This document shows, piece by piece, positions 1 through 51,496 of a DNA stretch of 64,000 nt. The stretch lies in IMG/VR virus record IMGVR_UViG_2778261574_000002; one strand, given 5' to 3'. Below the pieces are notes generated by a model that did no database searches, had not been told where the DNA came from, and worked only from the letters and a program-made list of their open reading frames with translations. Position 1 is the stretch's first letter. Each line of letters begins with the position of its first letter. This DNA is from a virus (taxonomy: Duplodnaviria; Heunggongvirae; Uroviricota; Caudoviricetes). The position numbers and the translations under genes were made by a program.

Positions 1-567
1 ACAACTTATCAGACAGAAGCTGTGAACAGCGTCAACATGACCGCTGGCCGCATTATTCATCTGATTGATAAGGACATTCGCATCCAGAAAAGCTCGGGGA
101 TCAATGAGCACAGTGCGAAATACATAGAGAACCTGGAAGCAACAAAAGAGCTAATGAAGCAGTACCCGGAGGATGAAAAATTCCGTATGCGTGTACACGG
201 CTTTAGCGAAACAATGCTGCGCGTCCATTACATTTCCAGTAGCCCTAACTACAATGATGGTAAATCAGTTAGTTACCATGTGCCGCTGTGTGGTGTGTTT
301 ATCTGCGATGAAACTCTCCGTGATGGAATCATCATCAACGGTGAATTCGAGAAAGCAAAATTTAGCCTTTATGACTCTATAGAACCGATCATCTGCGACC
401 GCTGGCCGCAGGCAAAAATATATCGCCTGGCAGATATTGAAAATGTAAAAAAACAAATTGCCATCACTCGCGAAGAGAAAAAGGTCAAATCAGCCGCATC
501 AGTTACGCGCAGCCGTAAAACTAAGAAGGGGCAGCCAGTAAACGACAACCCCGAAAGCGCGCAATAG
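1..567 (+). CDS. 3' portion of an ORF that enters from upstream of the window; candidate C1-type immunity repressor
   Basis: Frame 1 is open from nt 1 (..TYQTEAVNSVNMTAGR..) to a stop at 565-567; convergent with pacB. Identity inferred only from position beside the terminase genes. Confidence 0.35.
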   Translation, partial: TTYQTEAVNSVNMTAGRIIHLIDKDIRIQKSSGINEHSAKYIENLEATKELMKQYPEDEKFRMRVHGFSETMLRVHYISSSPNYNDGKSVSYHVPLCGVFICDETLRDGIIINGEFEKAKFSLYDSIEPIICDRWPQAKIYRLADIENVKKQIAITREEKKVKSAASVTRSRKTKKGQPVNDNPESAQ

Positions 568-14720: not shown

Positions 14721-15226
14721 TATTGTTGGTGGAGAAGCGCGTTTTCATACTCCCTGACCATTAACGTAAGTACGCCGTGACTCCTGAAAACACGCGCCAC
14801 TTCAATCTTATCTTCCAGCGCGAACGCAATTTTACTTAGACCAATTTTCTTCAGGAGATCAATCTTTGCTGGACCGTCATTTCTGTCATCGGTGGCAGGA
14901 CGCATAGATAGCAAAGGCTCAGCCCCATTTGTTACGTGCTTACGCAACCAGGCTCGTGTTTTATCCCTGGCTATCTCACAGCGCCCGGTTACAAACCAGA
15001 GGGTGTAAATGCCGGACAACTGGCGCACCATATCAATAACTGGAGTGATGGGAGCATCAGTGTCACAGGCAAGGTTAAACTCGTTCCAGTGCTCTGTTAA
15101 TGCACCTTTGCCAGGTGGTGGAAGTAAATGCAGCCTGTCTTCCGTTGCCTCTGATATCGTCCCATCAATATCTACTATGACGATGTACGGACGTTCCTGG
15201 TGTGCGTGTTTATTGAAAATACTCAA
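14720..15226 (-). CDS. HAD-superfamily phosphatase-like protein
   Basis: 168 aa; DxDGT motif (IVIVDIDGTIS) near the N-terminus. Confidence 0.55.
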   Translation of the reverse strand: MSIFNKHAHQERPYIVIVDIDGTISEATEDRLHLLPPPGKGALTEHWNEFNLACDTDAPITPVIDMVRQLSGIYTLWFVTGRCEIARDKTRAWLRKHVTNGAEPLLSMRPATDDRNDGPAKIDLLKKIGLSKIAFALEDKIEVARVFRSHGVLTLMVREYENALLHQQ

Positions 15227-15298
15227 ATGCCCTCCTCATTGGACGAAAAAAATGCTGGTGGGCGCACTCCACCAGCATTAAATGTGACACTGTAACTA

Positions 15299-16561
15299 TC
15301 AGCGAACGTAAATAGTGCCGCCGTTCTCTTTTTCCCATGCATCGCTACGTGCATAGCAAACATCGAGAAGTCTTCTTGCCGCAGTTTCCTCTAAACCCAA
15401 TTCAACAACCAACTGCTCATGACGGCGGGTAACTACATCAAATAGGCTATGCAGCCCTTTATTGGCCAGTTCATCAATGAATTCCGGTTCGAACGGCAGC
15501 TCTACCTCTGCCAACATAACCTCTTGCGCCCACTCAACTCGACGGACCAGTTCCGGGCGGCGGCTTTCCATCTCTTTACAGATCAATTCATGGAAGAACT
15601 CTACCCAACCTTCCGGCTGGAACTCGCGGAAAATGGCCAACGGCTGGAAGTTTGGCATCAACCATTCGTTGATCCGGATATCAATGGCATAGCCCATGTC
15701 GCAGCAGAACTGATAAGCAAAGTCCAGCTTAGAAACGATATAAGGACGCTCGTTATTGAACTCTTTAGGCGATGAGATCCCATAAGCCAGGAGGCGCGGG
15801 AAGAAGGAGATTTGCCCTAACGTCGGATGAAGTTTGCTTGCAGGGAAACGGCGCTCAGTAATGCCATACATTTCCTTCTTGAGCGTCGCAAATTTGGCAT
15901 TCTCATTAACCAGCGCGGTAACCTCTGCTTTTTTATTAGCAAATGCCACGCGCGCTTCGCTTGCATCTTTAATAGTTTTTTTGAGCTGTTGGTTAAGGTC
16001 GGCGACCTGCTTACGCAGTTCCTGTCGCTCGCTTTTAGCTTTGTTATAGCGTTTCTCAAGGTTAAAAGGATCAAGTTTCATGATCTCTTTATATTGAGAT
16101 TTTAGCGTTGAAATCTGTGAGTTCCGCAGTTCAACCATCGCGGTCATTTCATTGAGTTTTGTTTCCAGCTCAATGCTTATACGTTCGGCATTATCAGCAC
16201 GCTGGTTGGCGTCATGCGTCGCATCGTCGATCGCGTCCTGTTGCTGGCGTTTCAAATGTTCAATTTGCAGCTGAAGCTCTTCAATTTCTTTACCCTTCAG
16301 ACCGAGATCCAACTGCATATTTTCAGCTGCATCTACCAGGGAGTTATGGCTATCAGCTTCTGCGTTATAAACATCAATAAGCTGTGCGTGAAGCATCTCC
16401 GCTGACTGAACCGCATTATCAAAAAAACGTGCTGTGAGGTCATCACAACTAACGCGGCGTTGCGCGGCCCGGATGTTCTGGATAATGGCCGGGATACCGG
16501 CATTCAGGACATCAGGGATAGATACATTTTCGATTGATTGGTTTTGTGCTGAAGTGCTCAT
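15299..16561 (-). CDS. hypothetical protein with N-terminal coiled coil
   Basis: 420 aa; heptad-rich, Q/E/K-rich N-terminal half. Confidence 0.5.
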   Translation of the reverse strand: MSTSAQNQSIENVSIPDVLNAGIPAIIQNIRAAQRRVSCDDLTARFFDNAVQSAEMLHAQLIDVYNAEADSHNSLVDAAENMQLDLGLKGKEIEELQLQIEHLKRQQQDAIDDATHDANQRADNAERISIELETKLNEMTAMVELRNSQISTLKSQYKEIMKLDPFNLEKRYNKAKSERQELRKQVADLNQQLKKTIKDASEARVAFANKKAEVTALVNENAKFATLKKEMYGITERRFPASKLHPTLGQISFFPRLLAYGISSPKEFNNERPYIVSKLDFAYQFCCDMGYAIDIRINEWLMPNFQPLAIFREFQPEGWVEFFHELICKEMESRRPELVRRVEWAQEVMLAEVELPFEPEFIDELANKGLHSLFDVVTRRHEQLVVELGLEETAARRLLDVCYARSDAWEKENGGTIYVR

Positions 16562-16562
16562 T

Positions 16563-16781
16563 TCAAAGTTCCGTATTAGCTTGTGCTTCGGTCATTTTTC
16601 CTAAGTATGAAGGAGGAAGGACTACGCAATTTGTATCCAGTCCCTCACCTATGGCAGCCTGTAAAATTCTGGCTAAGGTGAGTCTCTTGTTGCGATACTT
16701 GGTGATGACATGCCTGATACCGCCGGTCGGCGTAACAAAGGCGATCAGCCAGTAGTGATATTTCCGTCGGAATGGCCACAT
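16563..16781 (-). CDS. small hypothetical protein
   Basis: 72-aa ORF between the operator pair and the 420-aa gene. Confidence 0.3.
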   Translation of the reverse strand: MWPFRRKYHYWLIAFVTPTGGIRHVITKYRNKRLTLARILQAAIGEGLDTNCVVLPPSYLGKMTEAQANTEL

Positions 16782-16795
16782 AGTGCACCTTGTAG

Positions 16796-16861
16796 ATTGC
16801 TCTAATAAAAAACGTGATGAGTGTACATCACGTTTTAAAAATATGGAATTATTAGAGCAAT
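16796..16861. promoter_or_regulatory. inverted pair of C1 operator-like 17-mers flanking a palindrome
   Basis: ATTGCTCTAATAAAAAA (16796-16812) and GGAATTATTAGAGCAAT (16845-16861), with AACGTGATGAGTGTACATCACGTT between them. Confidence 0.5.
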
Positions 16862-16868
16862 ATTATTC

Positions 16869-17564
16869 TTATTCTCGCTCAAAAAACGAGCTAATAAGGG
16901 GAAGCCAATCCTCTGACACTTCGCGAGGTCGCGGTTTGCCGTGGAAAAAGATTATTCGGCAGTCCTTTGGTAATGCCCCATTCCCCCTGGAGTAACGCGC
17001 GCTCGCATATTTTGAACCAGGTTCCACAACATCGGCCTTGTAACTTACAAACCATCCTGGATACAGATCCTGAAATGCTGGTGTATCATCGCCCATAACC
17101 TTCCGTAAGAACCCCTGATCACCCCAGCACTCAGTAGTGACACAACGAGAAATCCAACCTTCCGGATCTTGCCAGAATGAACTCCAGATATGCGCTTTTA
17201 CACTATTTGGTATCCACAGGGCACCGCTACCACGATATTGTGGATGGTAAAAATCCCTAAGCATGGTGAAGCTGGTTGGTGGATTCTCAAGGATTGGGCG
17301 TATATCACCGGCAATAACTGTGTCCAAATCCAGATAGAACAGATCATCTGTTATATCCGGTCGGAACAACTCGATTTTCGCCCACCAGCCACGGCACTTT
17401 TGCCACTGGTTGATCAATGGGACAACTTTGACGCCAGGTACATGTAAACGCTTCAGGTCTGTCAGGCAAATAATTTCATAGCCTTTTGGCAGTTGATTAA
17501 CCAGCCACTGCACATCGGAAGCGTTATAGTCACCACCAGAGCGAAAAACTAAAGCAATCTTCAT
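16869..17564 (-). CDS. hypothetical enzyme with DxD-like motif
   Basis: 231 aa; [11 protein letters not shown] suggests a nucleotide-sugar transferase-type fold; stop overlaps the next start. Confidence 0.45.
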
Positions 17565-18253
17565 GCTGCACCATCACCTTTCACTTTCATCAATGTCAGG
17601 TTTCCGCAAAATACGGCACCAGTGTCGATATACTGCTGATTCCAGAATGTCTTCGGGCTTTTCACCGGAGTGTGACCAAAGATAAAACGATCTGCGCCCG
17701 AAATTTCGCCACCAATATCATCCATCGAATCACTGATACGCTCGCGCGCCCAGACAACGTTGAAAAGCGGCACCTCCTTACCGAATTGGTATTCATTATC
17801 CGGATAGTCGGCATGGGCTATAACGATAGTTTCTTGCCCGGTGTTCAACTCAATGATATAGGGCAGACGCTTTACCAGCTCCACCAGCGCCCAGGCTAAT
17901 ATTTCCTGATCAGTGTCCAGCATGAAGAACCATTGTCCGCCATTCATTAGCCAGTTATTCACGTTGCCATCTGGACTTAACGCATCAATCATCAGCCGCT
18001 CATGGTTCCCCATCACTGCCCTGAACCAGGGCATCTGCAATAGTTCCAGACATTCGACATTTTCAGTACCGCGATCGATAAGGTCGCCGACCGATATCAG
18101 TAAATCCTGCGCCGGGTCAAAATCCACACGATGGAGTTCGGACATCAGTCTGGTGTAGCAACCATGCAGATCACCAACAACCCAGACATTCCTGTATTTG
18201 GTACCGTCGATACGGTGATAAATTGTGGGTGCCATCATGTATTCTTCAGCCAT
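17561..18253 (-). CDS. ppp: Ser/Thr protein phosphatase (calcineurin-like metallophosphoesterase)
   Basis: 230 aa; GDLHG, GDLIDRG and GNHE motifs. Confidence 0.75.
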
Positions 18254-18861
18254 TCTTTAAGAGTCATCTGCGGAATACCTCCCATTTTCCCGCATGAAAC
18301 AACGTCAATCTGTTCACGCGCAGACTGGAATAACAAAGGCAGGTGACTTAGATTTTTTGGCGTGCCGCCGGAGTGAACGCGTGGTTCTTGTGTAGCGTCA
18401 ACGCCCACCAGGGCGACATGTTTGAATCCGATATGGAAAGCCAGGTTCAGAGCGCCATATGCACTATTGCCGCTGGCAATTTCATTCTCATCTTCGCAAA
18501 GTCCGAAATGTGCGGACCAGCGCCACGCCCACCACTCGGGAGAATTCGTATTTTTTGGCTCCATGCCACGTTCAGCCACACGACGGAAGCACAGAACGCC
18601 GTCTCTGACTTCACGTTCTTTAACATCGGGTAGTGCCATGCAATAACAAACACCACGGCGACGGCGGCCACGACCAACGCGCCGCATATTGTCTGGCGAT
18701 GGATCAAGTGTGAAAAAATAAGAAGCGCGGTTCAGCCAGTCGATGGCCCCATTGACCGCTATAATCGGCACTCCGCGCGGCGCAACAAAGTTTGCGGCGC
18801 TTGGGCCACTGCCGACGATAATAACGCGATCACTGCCTCTAAATTTATTCTTGGGAAACAT
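18235..18861 (-). CDS. Rossmann-like protein with GSGPS motif (paralog A)
   Basis: 208 aa; [20 protein letters not shown]. Confidence 0.5.
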
Positions 18862-46958: not shown

Positions 46959-47591
46959 ATGTTTGTGCCTGTACTGTTAAAGGGGGACTCTAAAATGGCT
47001 GTGATTCCAATGTCGTACTCCCCGGGTACTGTTGCTCGTCGATTTTCGATCCTGGACGGAGTTACCATCCAGGGTGTGCTTTACCAGGTTATATGGGATT
47101 CCAAAACCCCATTTGCAGCTGTAATAGAGGCTGCGCCTTCTATTATCGATGGTGATATGCGCCATAAGGTTGTCGCTACTCTTGAACTTCAACGTCGCCC
47201 GCAGCTTGAAGGCGTACTGGTAAGGAAGTTCTGGGAGGATAGCGATGTTGCCCAGATTGAAGGTATCGTGGTTGATGGAACCGTCCGGGATGTCGGTTTA
47301 GCTACTTTTGTTTACGAAACCGTAGCCTCAAAAGCTGGTGTTGTTTTGCTCAGTGATAATGAGCAATACGAAGGTGGAAAAGCTCTTTGGCAACACATCG
47401 CCCGTCGCTCTTCCGAGCTAAAAGTGTTTATCCTTGACACCGATGCCGCTCAGTATTACCCGTTTGACGGCGAACGTGTTTGCTATGACGGGGTAAGTAT
47501 TCCTGAATCCGAGATATGGAGTGAACACCCAGATCGAAGTAAGCATGGGGTTGTTCTGGTCGCTGAATCCATAATTGGAAATGCGGCATAG
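46959..47591 (+). CDS. hypothetical protein
   Basis: 210-aa ORF, start uncertain. Confidence 0.45.
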   Translation: MFVPVLLKGDSKMAVIPMSYSPGTVARRFSILDGVTIQGVLYQVIWDSKTPFAAVIEAAPSIIDGDMRHKVVATLELQRRPQLEGVLVRKFWEDSDVAQIEGIVVDGTVRDVGLATFVYETVASKAGVVLLSDNEQYEGGKALWQHIARRSSELKVFILDTDAAQYYPFDGERVCYDGVSIPESEIWSEHPDRSKHGVVLVAESIIGNAA

Positions 47592-47773
47592 CAGTAAAAA
47601 ATTCCTTGCTCCTTAAAAGGGGAGAGGGTTAATCTACGTATGCTAAGCATAGAGATGGCCTCAGATTAATGTTAAGCGTCTTGCAGGACGCGTAATGTTA
47701 TCTGGGGCTTTCTTCTATCTGCTTTTCGGGTAATGCCTGAAGCAGATAGCCTCAAGCACCCGTAACGATTGTA

Positions 47774-51189: not shown

Positions 51190-51400
51190 AACAACCTGCT
51201 ACCCGCTGTCAAACAGGTGGCAGGACGTGACAGGGTTGACAGACTGGCGATTGTGAAACCAGCAGGCCGAAGCCTCCCCATCACGCCCCACCATAATTTG
51301 GGCGTAACGCGGTTTAACGGACACAAAAATACCGCAATATCGGAAATCTGCGGTTGTCCGCACAATCATTCAGGCTGTCAAACCTGGTCGCAGAATTTGC
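51190..51400 (-). ncRNA. candidate C4-type antisense RNA region
   Basis: Leader between operator and icd with GCTGTCAAAC at 51205-51214 and 51374-51383 and a near-complementary GTTGACAG at 51235-51242. Confidence 0.35.
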
Positions 51401-51479
51401 TACGACGGCGGAACTATAAGCCTGAACGATTAAAAGGTCAATATGATGCGAAAAGATAGCATTCGTGACTTAAAAATAC

Positions 51480-51496
51480 AAATTTATTAGAGCATT
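51480..51496 (-). promoter_or_regulatory. C1 operator-like 17-mer (16/17)
   Basis: AAATTTATTAGAGCATT on +; upstream of the antirepressor operon. Confidence 0.6.

Follow-up and report, generated by a model that had tools for sequence, protein, structure and literature searches.

Inverted C1 operators, a predicted promoter and a candidate terminator hairpin in the pmgQ-pmgR gap of a P1-family phage-plasmid

The pmgQ-pmgR gap and its C1 operators

In the gap of 87 bp that separates pmgQ from pmgR, two operator-like 17-mers face each other across an inverted repeat. The arrangement raises the question of which sites these are, what they control, and whether the repeat between them carries a signal of its own or merely holds the operators apart. 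The DNA analysed here (a stretch of 64,000 nucleotides, referred to throughout as the window) is from a P1-family phage-plasmid; positions 15000-19000 are 99.9% identical to RCS47 and 98.6% identical to phage P1. The open reading frames and the annotation of the P1 record AF234172 place the genes of the neighbourhood, pmgQ, pmgR, pmgS and pap, all on the - strand of the window. The c1 repressor gene is cut by the left edge of the window, where positions 1-567 (+) encode the C-terminal 188 residues and the stop codon; this fragment was placed by way of the c1 gene of RCS47 (105037-105888), and it amounts to the 3' two-thirds of c1.

On sequence comparison the two facing 17-mers are the catalogued C1 operators Op86a and Op86b, and as such are already known. 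They agree base for base with the operator features of AF234172, and the P7 record (AF503408) annotates the same sites. The first-pass annotation of this DNA had described two operator-like 17-mers facing each other about 30 bp apart, which holds for both sites, with 32 bp between the 17-mers and about 49 bp from centre to centre; its reading of them as operators is borne out by their coincidence with the annotated C1 operators of P1. The whole unit, from 16796 to 16861, reads ATTGCTCTAATAA-AAAACGTGATG-AGTGTA-CATCACGTTTT-AAAAATATGGAA-TTATTAGAGCAAT. An asymmetric C1 operator consensus, ATTGCTCTAATAAATTT, and 22 operators dispersed on P1 have been described (PMC8546580). Each of the two 17-mers matches this consensus at 14 of 17 positions, perfectly so at positions 1-13, and the first 13 nt of the two operators form exactly complementary arms that stand 40 nt apart. 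The 3' end of Op86b, AAAAAA, departs from the consensus and is the complement of the T-tract of the putative terminator considered below. The coordinates of these and the other features of the locus are collected in Table 1.

Table 1. Position, strand and basis of the features in and around the pmgQ-pmgR gap of the window.
Feature	Sequence	Position	Strand	Basis and remarks
pmgQ		16869..17564	-	ORF and AF234172 annotation; last gene of the upstream operon
C1 operator Op86a (OpmgRa)	ATTGCTCTAATAATTCC	16845..16861	-	AF234172 protein_bind; P7 Op(sht[a]); motif enrichment
Predicted -35 of PpmgR	TTGCTC	16855..16860	-	AF234172 prediction; 3/6 consensus; inside Op86a
Predicted -10 of PpmgR	TAAAAC	16832..16837	-	AF234172 prediction; 4/6 consensus; overlaps the 5' arm of the hairpin
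Stem-loop, candidate intrinsic terminator of pmgN-pmgQ	AAAACGTGATG-TACACT-CATCACGTTTT	16809..16836	-	arms 16826-16836 and 16809-16819; loop 16820-16825
T-tract	TTTTTTATT	16804..16812	-	read from sequence; directly 3' of the stem, wholly within Op86b
C1 operator Op86b (OpmgRb)	ATTGCTCTAATAAAAAA	16796..16812	+	AF234172 annotation; P7 Op(sht[b]); inverted relative to Op86a
Shine-Dalgarno of pmgR	AAGGTG	16786..16791	-	read from sequence
pmgR		16563..16781	-	ORF and AF234172 annotation; 72 aa; essential; first gene under control of the operator pair
pmgS		15299..16561	-	ORF and AF234172 annotation; second gene of the controlled unit

The protein_bind text of AF234172 for Op86a reads 'monovalent C1-controlled operator OpmgRa; former Op86a; controls expression of pmgR and pmgS', and the same record also calls OpmgRb (former Op86b) monovalent. 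No mention of Op86 was found in the open-access literature. We infer that C1 would occupy both sites in this element.

Matches to the consensus are strongly enriched in the window, with 10 found at three or fewer mismatches against 0.43 expected, a number that none of 100 shuffles reached. Operators at other places in the window are mostly single, as the first-pass annotation had implied when it set this pair apart from single operators elsewhere; the exception is an overlapping inverted pair at 31137-31164, which is Obanab (Op72ab). The operator Oppp (Op83), at 19563-19579 (+), reads TATGCACTAATTAATTT and has four mismatches to the consensus, and was therefore missed at the threshold of three; motif scans at this threshold under-count real operators.

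The 3' end of pmgQ shows some peculiarities of its own. The operator-hairpin-operator unit is without difference between the window and the P1 record, whereas pmgQ of the window, compared with P1 and most relatives, is two codons shorter (stop codon at 16869-16871, -). The early stop is due to a single C-to-A change, TCA to TAA (GAGAATAAG in the window and GAGAATCAG elsewhere), and puts the stop 7 nt upstream of Op86a instead of 1 nt. A conserved hairpin-like repeat, GCTC-(A/G)TTTTTT-GAGC, is found in the 3' end of pmgQ at about 16877-16891 (-), some 15 nt upstream of Op86a. As for the gene downstream of the gap, only the E. coli plasmid NZ_CP100503.1 (9242-9457) encodes a PmgR with 100% identity to that of the window; the PmgR of every other plasmid differs from it by at least one residue.

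Several further features were noted elsewhere in the window. The sok antitoxin RNA model of Rfam matches 47587-47761 (-) over its full length with 91 bits, which suggests an addiction module of the hok/sok type; no such module is known from reference P1, and this one may be accessory cargo. The C4 antisense RNA and the a1/b1 target elements of the immI region lie at 51213-51298, 51367-51419 and 51480-51496 (-), with a near-consensus C1 operator, AATGCTCTAATAAATTT, just upstream. Four tRNA genes were found by Rfam at 28282-28354 and 30233-30478 (-), three of them tightly clustered.

The inverted repeat between the operators

The spacer between the two operators had been described as a perfect palindrome. 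It is instead an interrupted inverted repeat, with arms of 9-11 bp and a non-palindromic centre of 6 nt. The 24-mer AACGTGATGAGTGTACATCACGTT at 16811-16834 has 9-bp arms, which become 11 bp when the flanking A/T is included; the 11-nt inner arms are 100% complementary, and the central AGTGTA is not self-complementary. The hairpin folds with -13.4 kcal/mol on either strand (z of about -6, with none of 200 shuffles as good) and has four G-C pairs in its stem and a loop of 6 nt, while the core stem alone, at -8.5 kcal/mol, is moderately stable. On the - strand the tail that follows the stem is UUUUUUAUU, with a tract of six T. The stop codon of pmgQ is 32 nt before the hairpin, which therefore stands at the end of a transcription unit, and the next gene downstream of it has its own promoter-operator.

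Neither the P1 record AF234172 nor the P7 record holds a hairpin feature at this position, the consensus terminator scan did not report one, and a search of Rfam gave no match at the locus. The miss by the terminator scan is probably due to the stem reaching into the A/T tracts, which leaves too few T in the tail.

Copies of the operator-hairpin-operator unit were taken from P1-family loci of IMG/VR, of GenBank phages and of plasmids, and reduced to 19 distinct variants; the IMG/VR loci are mostly redundant copies of P1, so all counts rest on distinct sequences only. A contig scan of genomes gave two loci only, which are near-identical. The commonest variant across the P1-family loci equals the window over the whole 66 nt. 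The length of the unit from Op86a to Op86b is 66 nt in 18 of the 19 variants and 67 nt in the remaining one; the 13-nt cores of Op86a and Op86b are likewise both invariant in 18 of 19, and the T-tract columns 50-55 are invariant in all 19, one natural variant having 7 T. The four nucleotides between Op86b and the Shine-Dalgarno sequence (16792-16795, -) are hypervariable, taking the forms CTAC, TTAC, CTAT, ATAC, CCAT, CCAA, TCAT, CTGC and CAAA in near-identical P1-family genomes, with the operator and the Shine-Dalgarno sequence fixed on either side.

Changes within the spacer follow a pattern of their own. The inner helix is paired in 97.1% of cells over the 19 variants, against 38-72% in slid controls. 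In the Cronobacter phage JK004 and three IMG/VR lineages, both partners of two base pairs are substituted: columns 31/48 go from G-C to A-U, and columns 34/45 from A-U to G-C. The observed covariation score was reached by none of 500 shuffles; the sequences with these double changes are related and may reflect few independent events, perhaps one or two. The one-sided changes in the stem differ in their consequences for the two strands, giving 13 G·U wobble and 6 broken cells when read as - strand RNA, and 3 wobble and 16 broken cells when read as + strand RNA; variants that are wobble-paired on the - strand are A·C mismatches on the + strand. Every stem variant that recurs in several contigs remains paired on the - strand; the four pair-breaking variants each come from a single contig. 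The covariation and the strand bias of the wobble pairs therefore fit an RNA hairpin of the coding strand, and show the inner spacer to be under what appears to be structural selection of its own.

Taken together, the features expected of an intrinsic terminator are found here: a stable stem-loop followed by a U-rich tract, covariation in the stem, and a position at the end of an operon. The hairpin and its T-tract are most likely a one-directional intrinsic terminator of the pmgN-pmgQ operon, which would be nested between the -10 of PpmgR and Op86b. A sense-strand terminator role for this hairpin is plausible and is backed by the covariation.

PpmgR and the proposed arrangement of the gap

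PpmgR is a predicted sigma-70 promoter, the hexamers of which were placed in the window by adding 13517 to the locus coordinate of AF234172. It is weak, matching the consensus at 7 of 12 positions overall, and it is absent from the output of the consensus promoter scan. Its -10 is not conserved, reading TGAAGC in JK004 and TAAAGC in the lineage L091. The predicted PpmgR is the weakest link of the explanation put forward here.

Published expression data support the presence of a promoter somewhere in the pmgQ-pmgR gap. In RNA-seq of P1vir at 10 min, the log fold changes are 7.39 for pmgO, 6.99 for pmgP, 6.95 for ppp and 7.05 for pmgQ on the upstream side, and 9.02 for pmgR, 9.99 for pmgS, 8.45 for pap and 9.72 for pmgT on the downstream side (PMC8201110 Table S1). 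The rise of 2-3 log2 falls exactly at the pmgQ|pmgR boundary in the wild type, and the same step is seen in a dksA host (PMC8201110 Table S1); these values are log fold changes, are not length-normalised and are uninformative on termination. The step at 10 min therefore suggests that an early promoter fires within the gap.

Two other candidates were considered and set aside. A drop at pmgR in the 30-min RNA-seq data was rejected as evidence of termination, the values not being length-normalised and pmgR being only 219 nt long. A P1 late (Lpa-dependent) promoter was also rejected: LPpmgL has TAGTCATTT followed by AATATT, and TAGTCA/TGACTA is absent from 16780-16870 in this single comparison. 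A CRP- or FNR-like spacing (GTGA-N10-TCAC) was not seen in the inverted repeat by eye.

We consider it likely that the gap packs three signals together, namely the C1 operator pair, the weak promoter PpmgR and a sense-strand terminator. Op86a and Op86b would be asymmetric C1 binding sites arranged head to head, and PpmgR, whose -35 lies in Op86a and whose -10 sits just upstream of the hairpin and overlaps it, would drive pmgR-pmgS(-pap) once C1 is inactivated. On the coding (-) strand, the hairpin and TTTTTTATT would end the transcripts of pmgN-pmgQ. Transcripts from PpmgR are predicted to start at about 16824, in or near the loop of the hairpin; they would then carry only the 3' arm, and would therefore escape termination in their own leader. 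In the lysogen, C1 on Op86a would block the -35, and a second C1 on Op86b (about +13 to +29) could act as a downstream backup block. The exact start site, actual termination at the hairpin and the escape of PpmgR transcripts are steps that we infer.

Distant relatives, alternative readings and known systems

More distant relatives of the P1 family carry a pmgR homologue behind operators of a different kind. The Citrobacter plasmid NZ_CP056338 (L087) encodes a PmgR homologue that is 35% identical, and its pmgR region has no P1-type operator. Directly upstream of the homologue stand ACCATACTAATT ... AATTAGTATGGT, 20 nt apart. The motif AC[CA]ATACTAATT has five copies in the 98.8 kb of this plasmid against about 0.1 expected, and the coordinates of the remaining three sites put them close to gene starts or in intergenic DNA. 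Beside the terminase gene the plasmid encodes a C1 homologue (25947-26807; 24% identity, E 1e-6). In the Pantoea plasmid NZ_CP034366, inverted arms of 20 nt lie 16 nt apart directly upstream of the pmgR homologue, their core GATACTAAAA has 10 copies against 0.05 expected, mostly intergenic, and a C1 homologue (81283-82155; E 1.5e-10) is again encoded next to the terminase gene.

The inner hairpin is absent between the operators of both plasmids. The inverted arms there are no longer than the operator consensus, which includes a -35-like TTACA; there is therefore no evidence of hairpin selection in the Citrobacter and Pantoea lineages. From these comparisons of sequence, the inverted pair at pmgR is conserved through three apparent operator specificities, and only the P1/JK004 lineage has the inner hairpin.

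The C1-like repressors of the two plasmids are about 24% identical to P1 C1 and are accompanied by motifs of their own, TTACAGACAATACTAATT-like and TTACAAAAGATACTAAAAT-like, which suggests that these repressor and operator sets are new immunity types. Phage D6, which has ppp without an adjacent pmgR or pmgS, is uninformative. More remote PmgS homologues occur in unrelated phages of Vibrio, Aeromonas and Pseudomonas.

The persistence of the pair invites the reading that its geometry allows two C1 molecules to interact, by cooperative binding or by a micro-loop across the promoter, and that the hairpin is an incidental spacer; the first-pass annotation had likewise raised repressor looping. We regard this as possible but rather unlikely. 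In its favour, three lineages that differ in operator motif all have an inverted pair upstream of pmgR, and neither the Citrobacter nor the Pantoea plasmid has a second close inverted pair among its operator-like sites; the divalent P1 operator Op72ab is likewise head to head, and the P1-family unit is nearly fixed in length, as described above. C1-mediated looping at the c1 operators is said to have been described by Heinzel et al. in 1994. Against this, the CTAA cores are 53 bp apart in the window, 31 bp in the Citrobacter plasmid and 35 bp in the Pantoea plasmid, with no common geometry evident, although equivalent positions are uncertain between the motifs. The distance of about 49 bp between the operator centres is very short for a loop, AF234172 labels both sites monovalent, and the covariation and strand-specific wobble of the inner stem point to a spacer under structural selection of its own. 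An interaction between C1 molecules is compatible with the arrangement of operators, promoter and terminator preferred here and does not exclude it.

A more elaborate version, which we hold to be unlikely, is that the inverted pair at pmgR is a selectively maintained 'split divalent operator', at which two C1 monomers would clamp the -10/+1 region, and which would have outlasted three or more changes of operator specificity. The P1 lineage would also have captured the upstream terminator, so that C1 on Op86b, which holds the U-tract, could control initiation at PpmgR as well as read-through from LPpmgL into pmgR.

A terminator acting in both directions, which would also halt antisense (+ strand) transcription, had been suggested in the first-pass annotation in combination with an operator. 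The operator part of that suggestion stands, and a terminator is likely on the - strand, but the wobble asymmetry, the tails and the strands of the genes all speak against bidirectionality, which we judge to be very unlikely. In the window and in the lineage L092 the two strands give hairpins of equal stability (-13.4 and -14.0 kcal/mol, respectively), and there are A and T tracts on either side of the hairpin. However, the + strand tail, TTTTAAAAAT, offers only four U before continuing with A's, and no + strand gene converges on the locus. Natural variants break the + strand pairing far more often than the - strand pairing (16 against 6 cells), and in JK004 and L091 the + strand hairpin reaches only -5.8 kcal/mol, compared with -15.4 and -14.1 kcal/mol, respectively, on the - strand.

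There is a similarly slim chance that the hairpin is a 5' stabiliser or a translational element of the pmgR mRNA, with a start site upstream of it. The predicted -10 is weak and not conserved, which leaves the start site uncertain, and the hairpin is 17 nt upstream of the Shine-Dalgarno sequence of pmgR. The invariant T6 directly after the stem is, however, typical of terminators and would be unneeded for a 5' stabiliser; neither the scan nor visual inspection turned up a better promoter ahead of the hairpin, and a start upstream would terminate PpmgR transcripts in their own leader. It is highly improbable that the inner repeat works as DNA and not as RNA structure, being bound by a dimeric protein such as Lpa, the late activator, or a host factor, as might be suggested by an inverted repeat placed in a promoter region: its half-site differs by lineage (CGTGATG and CATGGTG) with pairing retained and G·T wobbles allowed, which is the signature of a folded strand and not of base-specific protein contacts, it has no resemblance to the -22 box TAGTCATTT of LPpmgL, and it is missing from the Citrobacter and Pantoea relatives.

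The control region is thus compact, ordinary and largely known. Its operators were catalogued decades ago and are part of the reference annotation, so that little is at stake in them. The unannotated hairpin behaves like a sense-strand terminator that would insulate the non-essential pmgN-pmgQ operon from the essential pmgR unit, and it may help, together with the paired-operator layout, in the annotation or engineering of P1-type phage-plasmids. As the paired-operator layout at pmgR appears to survive in heteroimmune relatives, it could give a quick read-off of operator specificity in new P1-like elements.

The closest counterparts of the locus are Op86a/Op86b with PpmgR in P1 (AF234172) and Op(sht[a])/Op(sht[b]) in P7 (AF503408), which share the sequence, position, orientation and spacing seen in the window. 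Within the window, Obanab (Op72ab) at the ban promoter also consists of two asymmetric C1 17-mers arranged head to head on opposite strands, with the -35 in its 'a' site, and its promoter is, like PpmgR, of the sigma-70 type. The 17-mers of Op72ab overlap by 6 bp and the -10 is in the 'b' site, whereas those of the Op86 pair are separated by 32 bp and have a hairpin and a T-tract between them. In the P1 record, the Op72ab region adjoins a dicF-like region.

With the Rho-independent terminators of enterobacteria and their phages, the hairpin shares the stem-loop, the U-rich tract, the position at the end of an operon and the compensatory and wobble changes. Unlike ordinary terminators of this class, the proposed one would be nested in the next promoter-operator, with its 5' arm overlapping the -10 and its T-tract inside a repressor site. 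The use of several repressor sites at one promoter, as at PpmgR, is shared with lambda CI at OR/OL, LacI and GalR. Those repressors bind symmetric sites as dimers or tetramers and form loops of 90 bp to several kb, whereas the C1 sites are asymmetric and, in the pmgQ-pmgR gap, about 49 bp apart.
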